Source of the DNA: a virus
Lineage: Duplodnaviria; Heunggongvirae; Uroviricota; Caudoviricetes
Length of the DNA: 12,554 nt
Strand: one strand, 5' to 3'
IMG/VR virus record: IMGVR_UViG_2740892211_000014
In this document: positions 1,528 through 8,394 of the stretch, one piece after another
Layout: each line of letters begins with the position of its first letter
How positions within the stretch are numbered: position 1 is the stretch's first letter
Program-made: the position numbers and the translations under genes
Notes under the pieces: model-generated
The model's input: only the letters and a program-made list of their open reading frames with translations
Told to the model about the DNA's origin: nothing
Databases searched by the model: none

Positions 1528-2202
1528 ATGAAAACAATCCATGACATCCGGCGGTCTAACGCCAGAAAACTGAGAGATGGTGTTGGCGGGAATTCTTCCT
1601 TTGCCACTATGATTGATCGCGAGCCAACCCAGACCAGCAGGTTTATGGGAGATGGTGCTACTAAAAATATCGGTGACAGCATGGCACGACACATCGAAAA
1701 ATGTTTCGACCTGCCTGTCGGATGGCTCGATCAAGAACACCAGACAACGAACATCACAAAAAAACCTGATGTTTCAATCACTAATAAACAAATCACATTA
1801 GTCCCTGTCATATCATGGGTACAGGCCGGAGCATGGAAAGAAGTTGGATATTCTGAGGTTGATTTGAGCACAGCAGAAACGTATCCCTGCCCTGTACCCT
1901 GTGGGGAAATGACTTATATCTTGCGGGTGATAGGTGATTCAATGATTGATGAGTACCGCCCGGGAGACATGATTTTTGTCGATCCTGAAGTACCTGCCTG
2001 CCACGGTGACGACGTTATTGCATTGATGCACGATACAGGTGAAACCACCTTCAAAAGGTTGATAGAAGATGGGACACAGCGTTATCTCAAAGCGTTAAAC
2101 CCAAACTGGCCTGAGCCTTACATTAAGATCAACGGTAATTGCTCTATAATTGGTACAGTGATTTTCTCAGGAAAACCAAGAAGATACAAAATCAAAGCCT
2201 AA
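1528..2202 (+). CDS. CI-type phage repressor with C-terminal S24 (LexA-like) autopeptidase domain
   Basis: 224 aa. C-terminal region contains VISWVQAGAW and RVIGDSM ... TFKRL, the Ser/Lys dyad context typical of S24 repressors. N-terminal region resembles the phage CI-repressor HTH domain. Divergent from the cro-like gene across the operator region. Confidence 0.8.
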   Translation: MKTIHDIRRSNARKLRDGVGGNSSFATMIDREPTQTSRFMGDGATKNIGDSMARHIEKCFDLPVGWLDQEHQTTNITKKPDVSITNKQITLVPVISWVQAGAWKEVGYSEVDLSTAETYPCPVPCGEMTYILRVIGDSMIDEYRPGDMIFVDPEVPACHGDDVIALMHDTGETTFKRLIEDGTQRYLKALNPNWPEPYIKINGNCSIIGTVIFSGKPRRYKIKA

Positions 2203-2214
2203 TCAATGTTTATG

Positions 2215-2237
2215 AACCTGCTTCGGCAGGTTTTTTT
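2215..2237 (+). terminator. Rho-independent terminator after the cI-like gene
   Basis: AACCTGC-TTCG-GCAGGTT stem-loop followed by T7 (2231-2237), 13 nt after the cI stop codon. Confidence 0.7.
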
Positions 2238-2241
2238 ATAC

Positions 2242-2269
2242 TTGACAATGTACCTTTGAGATACATAAT
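2242..2269 (+). promoter_or_regulatory. pL-like sigma70 promoter with embedded operator
   Basis: TTGACA (2242-2247), 16-nt spacer, CATAAT (2264-2269). The spacer and -10 overlap TGTACC-TTTGA-GATACA (2249-2265), matching the OR half-site consensus. Points toward the + strand early-left genes. Confidence 0.55.
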
Positions 2270-2395
2270 GAACCCAAGCGAAACAACGAACAGGCAGGAC
2301 GCCCACGAAGTAGCCGCCTGGGGCATATGAAGTCCAGGATGATTCGTTGAGTCATGTTGTGCCACTAGGCACTCATGTTAAAGCAGGTGTATGAA

Positions 2396-2671
2396 ATGAA
2401 AGTCCAGATTTTAAACAATAACTGTGAAGTCGTTTGGTCATACGACATAGCCGCCCCTGTAGATCAGAGCGGCGATAGCTGGACCAATGAGAAACATCAG
2501 ATTATGGCTGGAGTTGTGTTCTCTTTACGCCGTGCTTTGGAACAGGCTGAAGTATTTCCATCAGACCCTGAATGGAAATGGCCTTTTTCTATTTGCCCAA
2601 ATTCGGAGAACACATTTCAGAAAATTGGTCAGAAAGTCGCACTCGAAGAGCATCAGCCAACTGTTTCCTGA
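2396..2671 (+). CDS. Hypothetical small protein, first ORF downstream of the pL-like promoter
   Basis: ATG at 2396 preceded by AGGTG (2385-2389) at 6-nt spacing; an in-frame ATG at 2375 lacks a Shine-Dalgarno. 91 aa, no recognisable family. Its 3' end overlaps the convergent ORF 2589-2834 by 83 nt, so the true stop or the reality of one partner is uncertain. Confidence 0.4.
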   Translation: MKVQILNNNCEVVWSYDIAAPVDQSGDSWTNEKHQIMAGVVFSLRRALEQAEVFPSDPEWKWPFSICPNSENTFQKIGQKVALEEHQPTVS

Positions 2672-2834
2672 TTTTTTCAGGTAACTCGTCGGCATCGCAG
2701 AAACAACAACGCTCGATCATGTTGAAAGCCGATTCGTAGAACTGTTTCTGCTGAGTGTCGCTGAGACAGGAAAAGAGCGACGTTACGATGATTTTATTAA
2801 TTGCATTATCAAGTTCTTTTTCATCAAAAGTCAT
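2589..2834 (-). CDS. Hypothetical 81-aa protein, antisense to the early-left operon
   Basis: ATG (2834-2832) preceded by AAGGAA (2846-2841) at 6-nt spacing. Translation MTFDEKELDNAINKIIVTSLFSCLSDTQQKQFYESAFNMIERCCFCDADELPEKIRKQLADALRVRLSDQFSEMCSPNLGK is protein-like; no family recognised. Confidence 0.45.
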   Translation of the reverse strand: MTFDEKELDNAINKIIVTSLFSCLSDTQQKQFYESAFNMIERCCFCDADELPEKIRKQLADALRVRLSDQFSEMCSPNLGK

Positions 2835-3074
2835 TTGATTTTCCTTTTATGTATACGGGCTTAAAAGGATACCACCGAGCCTGAAGTGGTGAAAAGACAG
2901 GCACATAACAGCTAAGTATTTTCAACCAAAGAGAATCCTTAGCGTTGTGGTGAATGCGGCTCAGCGCACGCGGGTTAAGGTTGAGGCTGACAGTCGACCT
3001 TCTGTGGATACCCACCCGTCTGGTGTGCAACCTTCGCCAGGCACCGGGAGGCACCCGGCACCACAACTTTATGC

Positions 3075-3134
3075 TGTGTGTAGTCCTGGCGGTACCAGTT
3101 TGTACCCTTGCTTCCGGCTGGTACCGCTCTTTTT
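3075..3134 (+). ncRNA. Candidate DicF-like prophage sRNA ending in an intrinsic terminator
   Basis: Perfect 10-bp stem GCGGTACCAG (3089-3098) / CTGGTACCGC (3118-3127) followed by TCTTTTT. TGGCGGTACCAGTTTGTACCC resembles the 3' half of E. coli DicF (recalled as TGGCGGTATCAGTTTTACTCC ... CCGCC-TTTTT). Lies in an ORF-free stretch downstream of the immunity region, as dicF does in Qin. 5' end undefined. Confidence 0.3.
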
Positions 3135-3135
3135 A

Positions 3136-3222
3136 CAAAACAGAGAAGAGCATCACCGGACGACGGGCTCATAACCCAATCCATCCGGGCGGCGGTCACC
3201 GCAGGTGTTCTTCTCTGTTTTG
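3136..3222. repeat. 14-bp perfect inverted repeat flanking a 59-bp GC-rich spacer
   Basis: CAAAACAGAGAAGA (3136-3149) and TCTTCTCTGTTTTG (3209-3222) are exact reverse complements. Starts immediately after the terminator T-run. Spacer contains further short GC stems (CCGGA...CCGGG, CACCGC). Confidence 0.6.
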
Positions 3223-3347
3223 TGGAGAAACTAACCGCCCCTGCGGGGGCATCTATTGAAACGTAATTGCTTAATAATCGCCGGATGGCGAGGGCTTCCT
3301 TTTCCCAAAATTCAGCGCAGTGCAGCGCATATAAAGTGGAGAACGAA

Positions 3348-3884
3348 ATGTCATTTATTAAAACTTTTTCCGGGAAGCATTTTTATTATGACAAGATAAA
3401 TAAAGACGACATCGTTATTAACGATATCGCGGTTTCCCTTTCAAATATCTGTCGCTTTGCTGGTCATCTTTCACACTTCTACAGCGTCGCCCAACATGCG
3501 GTGCTTTGCAGCCAGCTGGTACCGCAGGAGTTTGCTTTTGAAGCGTTAATGCATGATGCAACAGAAGCGTATTGCCAGGACATCCCCGCACCACTGAAAC
3601 GCCTTCTTCCTGACTATAAACGGATGGAAGAAAAAATAGACGCCGTAATCCGTGAGAAATACGGGTTACCCCCGGTTATGAGTACACCCGTGAAATATGC
3701 CGATCTCATCATGCTGGCAACCGAACGCCGCGATCTCGGGCTTGATGATGGCTCTTTCTGGCCTGTGCTGGAAGGTATCCCGGCAACAGAGATATTCAAC
3801 GTGATTCCACTGGCTCCAGGCCATGCCTACGGGATGTTTATGGAACGCTTTAACGAATTATCGGAGTTACACAAATGCGCATGA
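3348..3884 (+). CDS. HD-domain phosphohydrolase (YfbR-like 5'-deoxynucleotidase family)
   Basis: ATG 3348 with GGAGA ~9 nt upstream. 178 aa with the HD signature (H in VAQHAVL, HD in ALMHDATEAY, followed by D in CQDIPAPLK), similar to small prophage HD hydrolases. The upstream 27 codons of the longer ORF are taken as non-coding. Confidence 0.65.
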   Translation: MSFIKTFSGKHFYYDKINKDDIVINDIAVSLSNICRFAGHLSHFYSVAQHAVLCSQLVPQEFAFEALMHDATEAYCQDIPAPLKRLLPDYKRMEEKIDAVIREKYGLPPVMSTPVKYADLIMLATERRDLGLDDGSFWPVLEGIPATEIFNVIPLAPGHAYGMFMERFNELSELHKCA

Positions 3885-4237
3885 ATGTTTTCGAAATGGA
3901 AGGGTTTCTGCGCGGGAAATGTGTACCGCGAGATCTGAAAGTGAATGAAACGGATGCTGAATACCTGGTGCGTAAATTTGATGCGCTTGAAGCTAAATGT
4001 GCAGCACTGGAAAACAAAGTAATACCAGTGTCAGCTGAACTGCCGCCAGCAAATGAAAGTGTTCTGTTATTTGATGCTAACGGAGAAGGCTGGCTGATTG
4101 GCTGGCGTTCTCTCTGGTACACATGGGGGCAAAAAGAAACCGGAGAATGGCAGTGGACATTTCAAGTCGGGGACCTTGAAAACGTCAATATTACTCACTG
4201 GGCAGTAATACCGAAAGCACCGGAGACTAAGAAATGA
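3875..4237 (+). CDS. DUF551-family phage protein
   Basis: 120 aa; start overlaps the upstream gene's end. C-terminal ELPPANESVLLFDANGEGWLIGW ... ITHWAVIPKAPE matches the DUF551 pattern (LPxxxxxVL ... THWxPxPxxP) as recalled. Confidence 0.55.
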   Translation: MRMNVFEMEGFLRGKCVPRDLKVNETDAEYLVRKFDALEAKCAALENKVIPVSAELPPANESVLLFDANGEGWLIGWRSLWYTWGQKETGEWQWTFQVGDLENVNITHWAVIPKAPETKK

Positions 4238-4508: not shown

Positions 4509-4715
4509 ATGCTGAACCTCGATTGTGTTCCAATCTCAACTTATTGCAAAGAAACTGGCGAAACTCCTGAAGCAATAAACAAACGTGTACAGCGCGGTGT
4601 TTGGCGTGAAGGTGTTCAGGTTTTAAAGGTTGAAGGCGTTAAGGAGAGGTGGATTGATCTTAGTGAGGTTGCAAAATGGGCCAGACAAAACTGCTCAAAC
4701 TACCGCGCGGCGTAA
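4509..4715 (+). CDS. xis: Excisionase-like DNA-binding protein
   Basis: ATG 4509 with GTGGAG upstream at 6-nt spacing. 68 aa, MLNLDCVPISTYCKETGETPEAINKRVQRGVWREGVQVLKVEGVKERWIDLSEVAKWA has excisionase-like winged-helix features. 3' end overlaps the int start by 40 nt, as in lambda xis-int. Confidence 0.6.
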   Translation: MLNLDCVPISTYCKETGETPEAINKRVQRGVWREGVQVLKVEGVKERWIDLSEVAKWARQNCSNYRAA

Positions 4716-5848
4716 CAATCAGGAAACACCGCCAGGGCGAAACGATCAATATAACTTTCACCTACAAAGGAGTTAAATGTCGTGAGCCTCTTTCCAATCT
4801 GGAAGTAACACCAAAGAACATTAAATACGCTGAGCGCACACTCGGCGAAATTCATAATAAGATCGAAAGGGGAACATTCATTTATGCGGAATATTTTCCC
4901 CGTTCTGCTCGTTTGAAAATTTTTGGTAATGCTGCTGCAGGCAAAACGGTAAAAATGTACCTGGACGAATACCTTGAAATCTGCGAAACGAGGAAACTTT
5001 CACCATCCACGATCGGTGGTTATAAAAAATGCCGTAGTGCGTTAGCCTCACTTCACATTTGCCCTGCAAGTGAATTAACACCAGCAACCCTGAAAGCGTG
5101 GATTCAAAGCCAGAAAACGACCTTAAAAACCATTCGCAACCAGTTATCTTTCCTGCGGTCAGCACTTGATGAAGCCGTGACCGATGGGGTACTTCAAATT
5201 AACCCCGTATCGTTAGTAACAGCTTCGCGCTACCAAAGTGATAAGTCAGAAGCAGAAAGCAGCTACGTAGTTGATCCGCTATCACCAGCAGAAGTTGATG
5301 CATTACTAGCAGCAGCCGGAAACAAACAATGGGAAAATCTGTTCCGGTTCGCTATACATACAGGCCTGCGTAGTTCTGAATTATGTGCCCTTCGATGGCG
5401 TGATATCGACTTTGTTGGAAAAACTGCCCATGTCCAGAGCGCAAGTGTTGTCGGTGTTATCAAAGGGACAAAGACAAAAGCAGGTACTCGGAAAGTTGAA
5501 CTGACAGAAGAGGCAATGTTGGCGCTGATAAATCAGAAGCCATTTACATTCATGAAGGATGCTACTGTCTTTGAAGATCCAAAGACCAATAAGCCTTGGG
5601 CAAGTGCTGATGCAATTAGGAAAAAAGCATGGGTGCCAACATTGCGAAAAGCAGGTATTCGTTACAGAAACCCATATCAAACCAGGCATACATTCGCCAC
5701 CAGCCATATCAGCCGAGGAGCAAACCTGTTTTGGCTTGCAGCTCAAATGGGGCATAAAGGGCCGGAGATGCTTTTCAGGCACTATGGTTCGTATCTTAAA
5801 GAGTATGATAACTTTACATCGATAAATCATTTGCATAATCATAATTAA
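4676..5848 (+). CDS. int: Phage tyrosine integrase (lambda-Int type with arm-binding N-domain)
   Basis: 390 aa. N-terminal KLPRGVTIRKHRQGETINITFTYKGVKCRE is arm-binding-like. C-terminal domain has the conserved R (FAIHTGLRSSE), the H-x-x-R context (RHTFATSH) and tyrosine in LFRHYGSY. Adjacent to the att repeat. Confidence 0.9.
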   Translation: MGQTKLLKLPRGVTIRKHRQGETINITFTYKGVKCREPLSNLEVTPKNIKYAERTLGEIHNKIERGTFIYAEYFPRSARLKIFGNAAAGKTVKMYLDEYLEICETRKLSPSTIGGYKKCRSALASLHICPASELTPATLKAWIQSQKTTLKTIRNQLSFLRSALDEAVTDGVLQINPVSLVTASRYQSDKSEAESSYVVDPLSPAEVDALLAAAGNKQWENLFRFAIHTGLRSSELCALRWRDIDFVGKTAHVQSASVVGVIKGTKTKAGTRKVELTEEAMLALINQKPFTFMKDATVFEDPKTNKPWASADAIRKKAWVPTLRKAGIRYRNPYQTRHTFATSHISRGANLFWLAAQMGHKGPEMLFRHYGSYLKEYDNFTSINHLHNHN

Positions 5849-5856
5849 TATTTAAT

Positions 5857-5884
5857 AATCCCCGCATTTTTAAAATCGGGGATT
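5857..5884 (+). promoter_or_regulatory. Hairpin between int and the cargo ORF: possible int 3' retroregulatory/terminator structure and/or RBS occluder
   Basis: AATCCCCGCATTTT / AAAATCGGGGATT form a ~13-bp stem with one bulged C and a 1-nt loop. The right arm contains GGGGA (5878-5882), the only Shine-Dalgarno-like element 7 nt upstream of the TTG start at 5890. The downstream U-tract is weak (ATTTAAAG). Confidence 0.4.
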
Positions 5885-5889
5885 TAAAG

Positions 5890-6669
5890 TTGATTACAAT
5901 TACATTCGACAAACTAATCACCTACATATCTTCAGTTGGTACTTTCATTTCAGCAATTGCTGCATTATATGCAATATGGTTAACGATATTTCAAAGAAGG
6001 CTCTCTTATAAACCCAATTTAGTGATAGACACTTTAAATATCAAGATGAATGTTAACGATTTCAACGGTTTTCATGTTGATATCTTACAAGCCCCTACGC
6101 TTCCACAAACAAAATTTTCAAACATAGGATTGGGGGCGGCAATTTCACTTAGATATCATTGGGATTTTAATTATAAAAAAAACATAAATCTATATTTAGA
6201 GTTGTTTTCGAAAAAATTCAAAAAAGAAGATAAATCTTTTACAACCGACTCCCAGTATGGAATATTCAAAATAATAAAAGAAAGAAAAGTATATATGTAC
6301 AATACTTTATCGACACCTTACGATATTGATTTTTCGTTACCATATAGTATAGATAAGAAGTCAAAAAACATTTTTGTACCAACCGCGGCAATTGATATTC
6401 TATTGAATATAGCATATCTTTCACATAGACTTAAATTAGTCGGTTCTTCATCATTCACTGGTCCAAAATTAATTATTGAATATCAAGATATAGAGGGTAA
6501 AACTAAAAAAGTCACTTGGCAAACAAAATTGGAACGTGGAGTGGCACGTTTCAGTGGTGATAATATGGAGGCAGATTTTGCACTACGGTTTACACCTGTA
6601 CCAGAGAAATGGACTACAAAAGGTCTAGAGAAGATACGCAAAAGCGCCGCAAACGCCATGTTCAGATAA
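5890..6669 (+). CDS. Hypothetical membrane-anchored protein, AT-rich cargo (moron) gene between int and att
   Basis: 259-codon ORF with TTG start; first in-frame ATG is codon 53. N-terminal hydrophobic segment ITYISSVGTFISAIAALYAIWLTIF predicts one TM helix before a ~220-aa Lys/Asn/Ile-rich domain. Markedly AT-richer than all flanking genes. No family recognised. Confidence 0.55.
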   Translation: MITITFDKLITYISSVGTFISAIAALYAIWLTIFQRRLSYKPNLVIDTLNIKMNVNDFNGFHVDILQAPTLPQTKFSNIGLGAAISLRYHWDFNYKKNINLYLELFSKKFKKEDKSFTTDSQYGIFKIIKERKVYMYNTLSTPYDIDFSLPYSIDKKSKNIFVPTAAIDILLNIAYLSHRLKLVGSSSFTGPKLIIEYQDIEGKTKKVTWQTKLERGVARFSGDNMEADFALRFTPVPEKWTTKGLEKIRKSAANAMFR

Positions 6670-6698
6670 ATATATAATTAAAACAACAGGTTAATATT

Positions 6699-6734
6699 TT
6701 TCAGACACGGGTTCAACTCCCGCCAGCTCCACCA
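6699..6734 (+). repeat. Diverged copy of the 3' end of the tmRNA gene ssrA (attachment-site repeat; not a full gene)
   Basis: TTTCAGACACGGGTTCAACTCCCGCCAGCTCCACCA matches the recalled ssrA 3' end (TTTCGGACGCGGGTTCAACTCCCGCCAGCTCCACCA) with 2 mismatches at the 5' side. No upstream tmRNA body is present in the window. Confidence 0.6.
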
Positions 6735-6861
6735 ATCATGATTGGACGGTGTAAGGACTACACCAACAAAAACAGGAAGTTATAAGTCTCAGCAGAACAC
6801 CGACCAGACGGTGAGGAGACAAAAAAGGATACGCAACGGAGTCGCGACTCCCTATGACATT

Positions 6862-6888
6862 AAAGCCCGCATCAGCGGGCTTTTTTAT
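6862..6888 (+). terminator. Rho-independent terminator, probably the native terminator downstream of the ancestral ssrA 3' end
   Basis: AAAGCCCGC-ATCA-GCGGGCTTT stem-loop followed by TTTTATT, ~130 nt downstream of the ssrA 3' fragment. Confidence 0.65.
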
Positions 6889-7317
6889 TGGTCCTGACCC
6901 GCCCTGAATAGAATTCATCCAATTACAGTCCAGACATATACAGTATCCCTCAGCTCAGTATCAGCTTCTCGACAAATGGTCACTGTTATTTACCCGTTGC
7001 CAGAAAGAGAATAATTTGCCCCCATAGCCAGCCTTCCCGGAATCTGTATATTCATTAATATTGTTATCGATTCCATCAAGTAACATAGGTTGGATGCGAT
7101 TGATCTTACTCACATTAGTCGACACGGAACTCAGTAAGTTGAACTCTGAAAAAGCAGTTTAAATAGCATTTAAACAAATGCCACCAGTTCGAAAAAGAGT
7201 ATAAGCACACTTAATATATTGTTTTAATTATTCATTTCCTTTCAACCCAATTCTTATCCCTCACATTATTTGTTATTAATTTGTTGTTTTTGATCACAAC
7301 AAGAAAACAATATGTAA

Positions 7318-8394
<1,077 letters not shown>

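Follow-up and report, generated by a model that had tools for sequence, protein, structure and literature searches.

The coding-free stretch at positions 2835-3347 of a 12,554-nt piece of Caudoviricetes DNA (IMGVR_UViG_2740892211_000014; the whole piece is referred to here as the window) holds two conserved, structured RNAs, both encoded on the + strand. The first (2941-3134) is, judging from its sequence, a divergent member of the STnc100/PasD superfamily, and consists of a pseudoknotted core, 14 nt identical to the host small RNA (sRNA) RprA, and an intrinsic terminator. The second, termed element 2, is a long stem that encloses a three-way junction. An initial annotation of the stretch had proposed functional non-coding sequence rather than spacer, and this is supported by the match to the Rfam STnc100 family and by covariation of the stems in homologues. 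The same annotation treated the stretch as one block, which it is not: by nucleotide comparison with phages it is a mosaic of modules, composed of five parts, namely a minus-strand promoter, the STnc100/PasD-type RNA, element 2, a joint hairpin and the upstream region of yfdR (Table 1). Also absent from it were the assignment to an RNA family, the pseudoknot, the likeness to RprA, the promoter on the minus strand and the composite origin.

The Rfam STnc100 model (RF02076) matches positions 2922-3136 over its full length in a permissive scan (42.1 bits, E = 1.1e-7, 751-nt search), and does not reach its curated gathering score of 47 bits. Sub-threshold STnc100 scores are also found at the equivalent positions of SfV (39.5 bits), ST64B (35.1), Cronobacter phage phiES15 (40.6), a Klebsiella phage (35.0) and the Qin prophage of E. 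coli K-12 (34.4 bits, E = 2.7e-4, for which reason the Qin copy, in the dicF-dicB spacer, is unannotated). Wherever annotation exists, the repressor flanks the element on one side and the early genes (kil, dicB or yfdP) on the other, and its strand is that of the operon. For the first RNA of the window, the + strand is indicated by the T-run of the terminator and by the strand of the Rfam match. STnc100, PasD1 and PasD2 are prophage-encoded, Hfq-associated sRNAs of Salmonella and of enterohaemorrhagic (EHEC) and enteropathogenic E. coli (bioRxiv 10.64898/2026.05.13.724894; PMC5331693), and the literature treats them only as prophage sRNAs with targets from RIL-seq (ligation and sequencing of interacting RNAs), with one copy located 75 nt 3' of stx2 (PMC12370729; PMC5331693; bioRxiv 10.64898/2026.05.13.724894).

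Pattern scans of viral contigs recovered ~180 distinct copies in ~50 sequence clusters, canonical STnc100 included, and these share one architecture. From 5' to 3' it consists of P1, the GGUGAAU motif, P2 (4 bp, loop CUNNGCG, in most cases with a single bulged base), a linker, an insert that varies, P4 (an 8-bp hairpin with a 6-13-nt loop) and P5, a hairpin of the form ACC(G/U)GGAGGCACC(C/A)GGCAC that immediately abuts the 3' strand of P1. We aligned the window with 39 diverse members (40 in all, canonical CCCC-type included). P1, P2 and P5 are 93.6% paired in this alignment, versus 37-46% in slid controls; the covariation score is 0.385 (0.133 in shuffles), and 105 cells are changed on both sides (36 in shuffles), with 0 of 500 shuffles as high in either measure. 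The P2 stem alternates among CCCC/GGGG, GCGG/CCGC (the window) and CCGG/CCGG, and the unpaired core nucleotides (GGUGAAU, the CUNNGCG loop and the AGGCA loop) are nearly invariant. Compensatory changes thus keep the stems in relatives, which answers the covariation check that the initial annotation had proposed. The two local stems that it singled out are both present, CCGGG-AGGCA-CCCGG as P5 and GCCCC-TGC-GGGGGC at 3237-3250.

P4 and the pseudoknot were misaligned by MAFFT and were therefore scored per sequence by script, not by column. The loop of P4 shows complementarity to the linker a few nucleotides 3' of P2 in 39 members, with partner sequences that vary from one member to the next: AAGGUUG/CAACCUU in the window, CAGUUAA/UUAACUG in Qin, AAGGCUG/CAGCCUU in phiES15, and CCAGUC/GACUGG and AGACUGACA/UGUCAGUCU in others. 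The median for a loop with its own partner is 6, versus 4 with the partners of other members, and 5.5% of the cross pairs reach 6. The pseudoknot does not appear in the structure line of RF02076. A tRNA-like fold, in which P5 on P1 resembles the T arm on the acceptor stem, was also considered; ARAGORN finds no tRNA or tmRNA gene in the window, and the likeness is speculation. In some viral contigs (loci L240, L134, L248, L235 and L247), two to three family copies with differing tails occur within 0.25-1 kb, and look like tandem arrays of STnc100-type genes.

Downstream of P1, the tail of the first RNA reads UUUA-UGCUGUGUGUAGUC-CU, followed by the terminator. The 14 nt of UGCUGUGUGUAGUC are identical to E. 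coli RprA, in which they likewise lie just 5' of the terminator, and in the predicted fold they are mostly unpaired, with an outer stem pairing the first bases. All 14 alignment columns are invariant in RprA, the window, phiES15 and phiNP, with one mismatch in ST64B. The identity to RprA extends to a 19-nt run in phiES15, which gives a weak Rfam RprA match (41 bits, E = 0.044); the RprA model (RF00034) has no match in the window at E up to 10. Among the 185 family sequences sampled, 32 contain UGCUGUGUGUAGUC, and 31 of these 32 have the GCGG-type P2; the tails of the other members are unrelated. Within the window, no target site complementary to this candidate seed exists apart from the seed itself. 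The literature yielded nothing on an "RprA-like" phage RNA or on an ST64B sRNA at this position.

The terminator hairpin that the initial annotation had pointed to is present, followed by T5, and is predicted in the minimum free energy (MFE) fold as a 13-bp GC-rich stem with U5. It was missed by the terminator scan because its loop exceeds 8 nt. ST64B, phiES15 and phiNP have hairpins of different sequence with a T-run at this position, and about half of the canonical members have a T-run 3' of the tail. The 5' half of the window terminator resembles that of DicF, although the Rfam DicF match (RF00039; 3075-3129, 15.7 bits, E = 1.4) is not significant against the threshold of 48.

With the small hairpin that follows it (3133-3252), element 2 has a predicted energy of -59.8 kcal/mol (z = -6.9; 0 of 200 shuffles as good). 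The 14-bp inverted repeat described earlier (3136-3149 / 3209-3222) is indeed perfect and has the 59-bp spacer ascribed to it; the perfect run is in fact 15 bp (3135-3149 / 3209-3223) and extends to 25 nt at 84% complementarity. The MFE fold has 22 consecutive basal pairs, 20 of which are conserved in 13 diverse relatives. RNAalifold on these relatives gives 34 pairs, 7 with compensatory changes, which form the 20-bp basal stem, the conserved arm (CCGGN ... GGGCUCAUAACCC ... N'CCGG) and a hairpin that varies. At one position, 12 of the 13 sequences have a U-G pair; this would be A-C on the other strand and is valid only on the + strand, which points to element 2 being a + strand RNA. In the loci in which it was found, it lies directly 3' of a T-run and ~10-50 nt 5' of the start of the next gene. 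No Rfam family matches (best score 14.9 bits). At the position of the joint hairpin, relatives have hairpins of unrelated sequence, followed by a Shine-Dalgarno sequence and a start codon.

Table 1. Features of the window in and around the coding-free stretch (+ strand coordinates).
Feature	Position	Strand	Description
cI-like Peptidase_S24 repressor	1528-2202		First in + strand order; 5' of the PL-type promoter
Repressor terminator	2214-2233	+	Between the repressor and the PL-type promoter
PL-type promoter	2242-2247 (TTGACA), 2264-2269 (CATAAT)	+	11/12 consensus positions matched (promoter scan)
Operator TGTACCTTTGAGATACA	2249-2265		Overlaps the PL-type promoter; copy of two operators between cro and cI
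Conserved structured leader	2287-2346	+	3' of the PL-type promoter; covaries at 9 pairs
98-aa gene	2375-2671	+	phrog_3195
Coding-free stretch	2835-3347		Between the 98-aa gene and yfdR in + strand order
Putative promoter region of the 81-aa gene	2865-2909	-	TTCACC-16 nt-TGgTATCCT (extended -10); -35 at 2888-2893, -10 at 2866-2874
Pseudoknotted core	2941-3071	+	Putative STnc100/PasD superfamily member; ~130 nt
P1	2944-2952 with 3059-3067	+	
GGUGAAU motif	2949-2955	+	
P2 hairpin	2956-2971	+	
Pseudoknot	2977-2983 with 3028-3034	+	AAGGUUG with CAACCUU (P4 loop)
P4	3018-3042	+	
P5	3044-3058	+	CCGGG-AGGCA-CCCGG
RprA-like stretch UGCUGUGUGUAGUC	3072-3085	+	Between core and terminator; candidate seed
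Intrinsic terminator	3088-3134	+	GGCGGUACCAG ... CUGGUACCGC(U)C, then UUUUU
Element 2	3135-3223	+	Starts immediately after the terminator T-run
Basal stem of element 2	3135-3154 with 3204-3223	+	20-22 bp
Conserved arm of element 2	3156-3188		At three-way junction; CCGGA...GGGCUCAUAACCC...UCCGG
Variable hairpin of element 2	3189-3202	+	
GGAGAAAC linker and small GC hairpin GCCCCUGCGGGGGC	3224-3250 (hairpin 3237-3250)	+	Joint where SfV yfdP-yfdQ are missing
yfdR upstream region	3251-3347	+	Ordinary; equals the SfV yfdQ-yfdR intergenic region; Shine-Dalgarno GGAGAA at 3338-3343
yfdR	3348-3884	+	ATG at 3348; small genes, then the integrase, follow
Integrase	4676-5848	+	3' of yfdR and small genes

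The inverted repeats might instead act as DNA, for example as an operator, recombination site, origin or cruciform, and a cis-acting DNA site was among the options first listed for the stretch. The 15-bp perfect repeat would suit such a role, as would the minus strand, which also folds better than shuffles (z = -4.3). We nevertheless consider a DNA site highly improbable. Conserved U-G and G-U pairs are not complementary in DNA (they become A-C on the other strand), the stem sequences vary while pairing is kept, and the arms stand 59 bp apart and enclose conserved sub-helices. Moreover, a terminator with a T-run exists on the + strand only, and the phage's own operator differs in sequence and is located elsewhere (Table 1).

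The idea that the structure is an accident of a GC-richer spacer has next to no chance of being right, and is already contradicted by the comparative data. The stretch had been called GC-rich, but the enrichment is only moderate (51.9% for 2835-3347 and 57.4% for 2922-3250), although real relative to the flanks (43-46%); the whole window is 49.2% GC. It is true that the first RNA on its own folds just modestly better than shuffles (z = -1.87), but covariation is strong, and element 2 lies far outside its shuffled distribution. In addition, 2786 of 5426 complete E. coli genomes match part or all of the stretch (668 match most of it), and conservation reaches Salmonella, Cronobacter, Citrobacter and Klebsiella phages.

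Decay of a protein-coding gene, with the structure being incidental, had been named as the outcome that would overturn an RNA reading, and some annotations do point that way. At the position equivalent to 2947-3266, the Prokaryotic Genome Annotation Pipeline (PGAP) places a frameshifted "hypothetical protein"; the minus-strand open reading frame (ORF) at 2975-3199 matches phrog_3651 (E = 1.8e-49), and the ORF at 3108-3266 matches phrog_33599, both being families of unknown function. The coding signature is absent, however. Differences are spread evenly over the three codon positions (11/15/18 against ST64B and 18/15/21 against phiNP for the minus ORF; 21/18/14 and 15/19/17 for the plus ORF), the alignments contain 1- and 2-nt indels, and the ORFs of the stretch have no Pfam match. 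As first reported, the ORFs in 2835-3347 are short and overlap each other on both strands, and none is credible. Helices are kept by compensatory changes, and PHROG families derive from annotated phage ORFs, so that they may inherit spurious calls over conserved non-coding DNA. A decayed gene is thus very unlikely. Pipelines annotate the stretch as a "hypothetical protein" or pseudogene; its recognition as RNA removes both the spurious ORFs and the protein "families" based on them.

As to what the two RNAs do, we regard it as probable that the first is a base-pairing sRNA driven by the PL-type promoter, and that the second serves the read-through mRNA as a site for its processing or stability. 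After induction, polymerase starting at PL would transcribe the 98-aa gene and then the core. Termination at 3134 in a fraction of the transcripts would yield an Hfq-type sRNA, either as such or once trimmed, and its exposed stretch of RprA-like sequence could pair with host mRNAs. Read-through transcripts would include element 2 within the 5' leader of the genes that follow (yfdP/yfdQ in SfV; here yfdR, then xis and int). Its duplex of two turns would be cut or bound, most likely by RNase III, for which a near-continuous duplex of at least ~20 bp makes it a plausible candidate substrate, and cleavage would separate the sRNA from the mRNA and set the stability or translation of the latter. Published work describes the STnc100/PasD family as base-pairing sRNAs that associate with Hfq; RIL-seq led to the discovery of PasD, and a northern blot in EHEC showed STnc100 (bioRxiv 10.64898/2026.05.13.724894; PMC5331693). 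A precedent is DicF of Qin, which arises from an operon of the same kind through termination and processing by the RNases III and E (bioRxiv 10.1101/2023.04.14.536235).

Several observations weigh against this proposal. The STnc100 score is below 47 bits, and a default Rfam scan of the whole window therefore reports nothing; the Rfam check suggested at the outset is accordingly negative at gathering thresholds and positive in the permissive scan. The promoter scan finds no + strand promoter in 2835-2943, where the best candidate by eye is weak, so that production would depend on PL, to which we attribute it, or else on a promoter that was not seen. The terminator also has an unusually long loop. 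For the rpoS leader as a target, RNAduplex gives -22.7 kcal/mol, which equals the mean for shuffled seeds (-22.9) and is uninformative. RNase III cleavage of element 2 is suggested by stem length alone. Family-wide, conservation is far higher in the core than in the 3' tail, the reverse of typical base-pairing sRNAs. Finally, in the Qin and Klebsiella types the core occurs with neither seed nor terminator and abuts the Shine-Dalgarno sequence of the next gene, and for these a cis role fits better than a trans-acting sRNA.

The core could accordingly serve chiefly in cis, as a module of the mRNA of the early operon that signals processing, stabilises the transcript, affects translation, or binds a protein or RNA polymerase, with the terminated "sRNA" as a by-product. 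We hold this to be possible but doubtful. In its favor, the Qin/Klebsiella-type core ends a few bases 5' of the Shine-Dalgarno sequence of dicB or of a small ORF upstream of kil, and P1 is extended to 18-21 bp in these phages. The near-invariance of unpaired core nucleotides among members whose 3' tails differ, and the constant placement on the operon strand between repressor and early genes, also fit a cis role. On the other hand, many canonical members look as if they stand alone, with a sigma-70-like -35/-10 just 5' of P1 (read by eye) and, in about half, the T-run after the tail, and discrete RNAs have been detected for canonical members (PMC5331693). A partner protein is not known, and the alternative core-terminator pairing that a switch would use was sought by eye and rejected, with no pairing being conserved in phiES15 or ST64B. 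More tentatively, the core may itself be the functional RNA module, such as a protein- or polymerase-binding or self-processing fold, which is used both stand-alone and in early operons before kil, dicB and yfdP. Together with element 2 and the leader that follows PL (described below), it would form an RNA-only layer of early-operon control in phages that have no recognized N protein. If so, "STnc100" and the 35-year-old K-12 dicF-dicB intergenic region would belong to one unrecognized class of cis- or dual-function RNA.

Among known RNAs, STnc100/PasD is the family nearest to the first RNA. The window RNA shares with that family P1, GGUGAAU, P2 with its CUNNGCG loop, the pseudoknot between the P4 loop and the linker, the near-invariant ACCGGGAGGCACCCGGCAC hairpin, a variable tail with terminator, and carriage by lambdoid prophages. 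It differs in its below-threshold Rfam score, in a P2 of GCGG/CCGC instead of CCCC/GGGG, in having no promoter of its own that we could find, in the RprA-like tail, and in its early-left operon location, canonical copies being found near Q, stx or lysis genes (PMC12370729; bioRxiv 10.64898/2026.05.13.724894). On account of these differences, we file it as a variant of STnc100/PasD rather than as a plain member.

The Qin prophage has the same core between repressor and early genes, between dicF and dicB (~2450-2590 of that locus, L011), and its operon likewise contains an embedded sRNA with a terminator. The order is different, being sRNA (DicF), core and gene in Qin versus core, seed with terminator and element 2 in the window, and the DicF seed is unrelated to that of the window. 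In MG1655, the 18-bp outer stem of the Qin core starts right after the DicF terminator and ends ~10 nt 5' of the dicB Shine-Dalgarno sequence; the literature yielded nothing on RNase III sites between dicF and dicB. RprA, an envelope-stress sRNA of the host, has in common with the first RNA the 14 nt just 5' of a terminator. The remainder of RprA is absent from the window, including AACGAAUU, with which RprA pairs with rpoS.

Lambda early transcripts have RNase III sites in the N leader and in sib, downstream of int. By textbook comparison, these resemble element 2 in being a duplex of about two turns in the early-left transcript, upstream of or beside regulated genes; there is no sequence similarity, and the conserved three-way junction of element 2 is not known there. 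The put elements of HK022, of ~70 nt and two stems, are structured RNAs that precede terminators in the early operons of N-less lambdoid phages (PMC9378689), and to this extent are like the first RNA, but the fold in the window is different and pseudoknotted. Identity of the first RNA as RprA, DicF, put or a tRNA was rejected by Rfam, BLAST and ARAGORN.

The present assignment links the STnc100/PasD RNAs of pathogens, the K-12 dicF-dicB spacer and the SfV/ST64B early region, which until now have been treated separately, and supplies, for the STnc100 family, a pseudoknotted fold that is open to test and is absent from the Rfam model. It also suggests that a temperate phage may make an RNA with part of the host RprA sequence once its early promoter fires; if true, induction would thereby be linked directly to the envelope-stress, biofilm or RpoS regulation of the host. 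Neither element 2 nor the post-PL leader matches an Rfam family, and both could become new entries.

The mosaic make-up is clearest in comparison with SfV. Positions 2201-3248 of the window are collinear with SfV locus 2867-3914 (98.3%), and 3237-3400 match SfV 5207-5370, in a jump of ~1.3 kb to the region 5' of orf30, from which it follows that SfV orf32 and orf31 (yfdP and yfdQ) are absent from the window. ST64B matches 2930-3235 at 77% identity with indels, Stx2 phages and mEp460 have only 3087-3248 in common with the stretch, and Klebsiella phages only ~2865-2910. The final part, 3251-3347, is 91% identical to the regions 5' of the yfdR homologue in SfV, mEp460 and Stx2a_WGPS2.

The window as a whole comprises the immunity region and left arm of an SfV/e14-like E. 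coli prophage, whose insertion adjoins csiD-lhgO-gabDT, and the coding-free stretch sits inside its repressor-controlled, PL-type early-left operon. The ORF at 3348 is annotated as yfdR, a 5'-deoxynucleotidase, in an identical locus in the databases; its Pfam match to YfbR-like/HD is below threshold (24.3 bits versus a cut-off of 25.9). The 81-aa gene had been assigned to this operon, but lies on the minus strand (2589-2834) and hence outside it. It has a strong Shine-Dalgarno sequence and matches phrog_3311 end to end (E = 3e-55). The 98-aa and 81-aa genes overlap convergently over 83 nt (2589-2671), and both have full-length matches to PHROG families of unknown function; in the identical locus, PGAP annotates the 98-aa gene and not the 81-aa gene.

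At the left edge of the stretch, the 45-nt block 2865-2909 is 95.7% identical in otherwise unrelated Klebsiella phages. In the window, a Klebsiella phage and phiES15, it lies just 5' of the start of a minus-strand ORF, which in the latter two has a good Shine-Dalgarno sequence. We read this block as the probable promoter of the 81-aa gene, an item separate from the RNAs and pointing the opposite way; its elements were identified by eye and were not called by the promoter scan.

The leader at 2287-2346 begins ~20 nt 3' of the PL-type promoter and has the form (A/G)CGAAC-AGGCAGGACGCCCACGAAGUAGCC-[5-bp hairpin, loop GGCAUAUGAAGN]-GAUGAUUCG(U/C). Leaders of this type follow early promoters of many immunity types, in phages of E. 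coli, Salmonella, Klebsiella, Yersinia, Pectobacterium and Providencia. Nine of its 15 predicted pairs covary; the central 25 nt were fixed by the search pattern, and invariance there is uninformative. Rfam gives no match to it. A put-type antiterminator as in HK022 was rejected, as BLAST of the leader against the HK022 immunity region finds nothing and the putL sequence differs. We consider the leader a candidate element for read-through of a downstream terminator by polymerase. In many related phages (L078, L098, L083 and others), it is directly followed by AAAAAAGCGCCCUACAGGACGCUUAGCUCUUUAACA and a hairpin with GCUCUUUAACA, a block that we take to match rrn boxA, the boxes being ordered as in rrn (boxB before boxA). 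In L225, a putL stem I like that of HK022, with compensatory changes, comes next instead, and in ST64B-type phages a further conserved block (GUGUCUUCGGGAGGGGU...) plus an additional terminator; in the window, the 98-aa gene occupies this slot. Given the different blocks found there in related phages, the slot seems to hold interchangeable antitermination modules.

The rightward operons of SfV, ST64B, mEp460 and Stx2a_WGPS2 (L002-L005) contain the C4 antisense RNA (~80-84 bits) and IsrK (64-67 bits), inside or beside an "antirepressor/transcriptional regulator" gene. The window has no C4 or IsrK match at Rfam gathering thresholds, and a different gene set is present at that position. Between the integrase and csiD, window positions 5850-7400 are low in GC (26-39%) and hold a 259-aa ORF (5890-6669) with no Pfam match. 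In strain KSC1031, whose prophage is otherwise identical, a DarT/NADAR (DarTG-type) pair adjoins the integrase instead of this segment.

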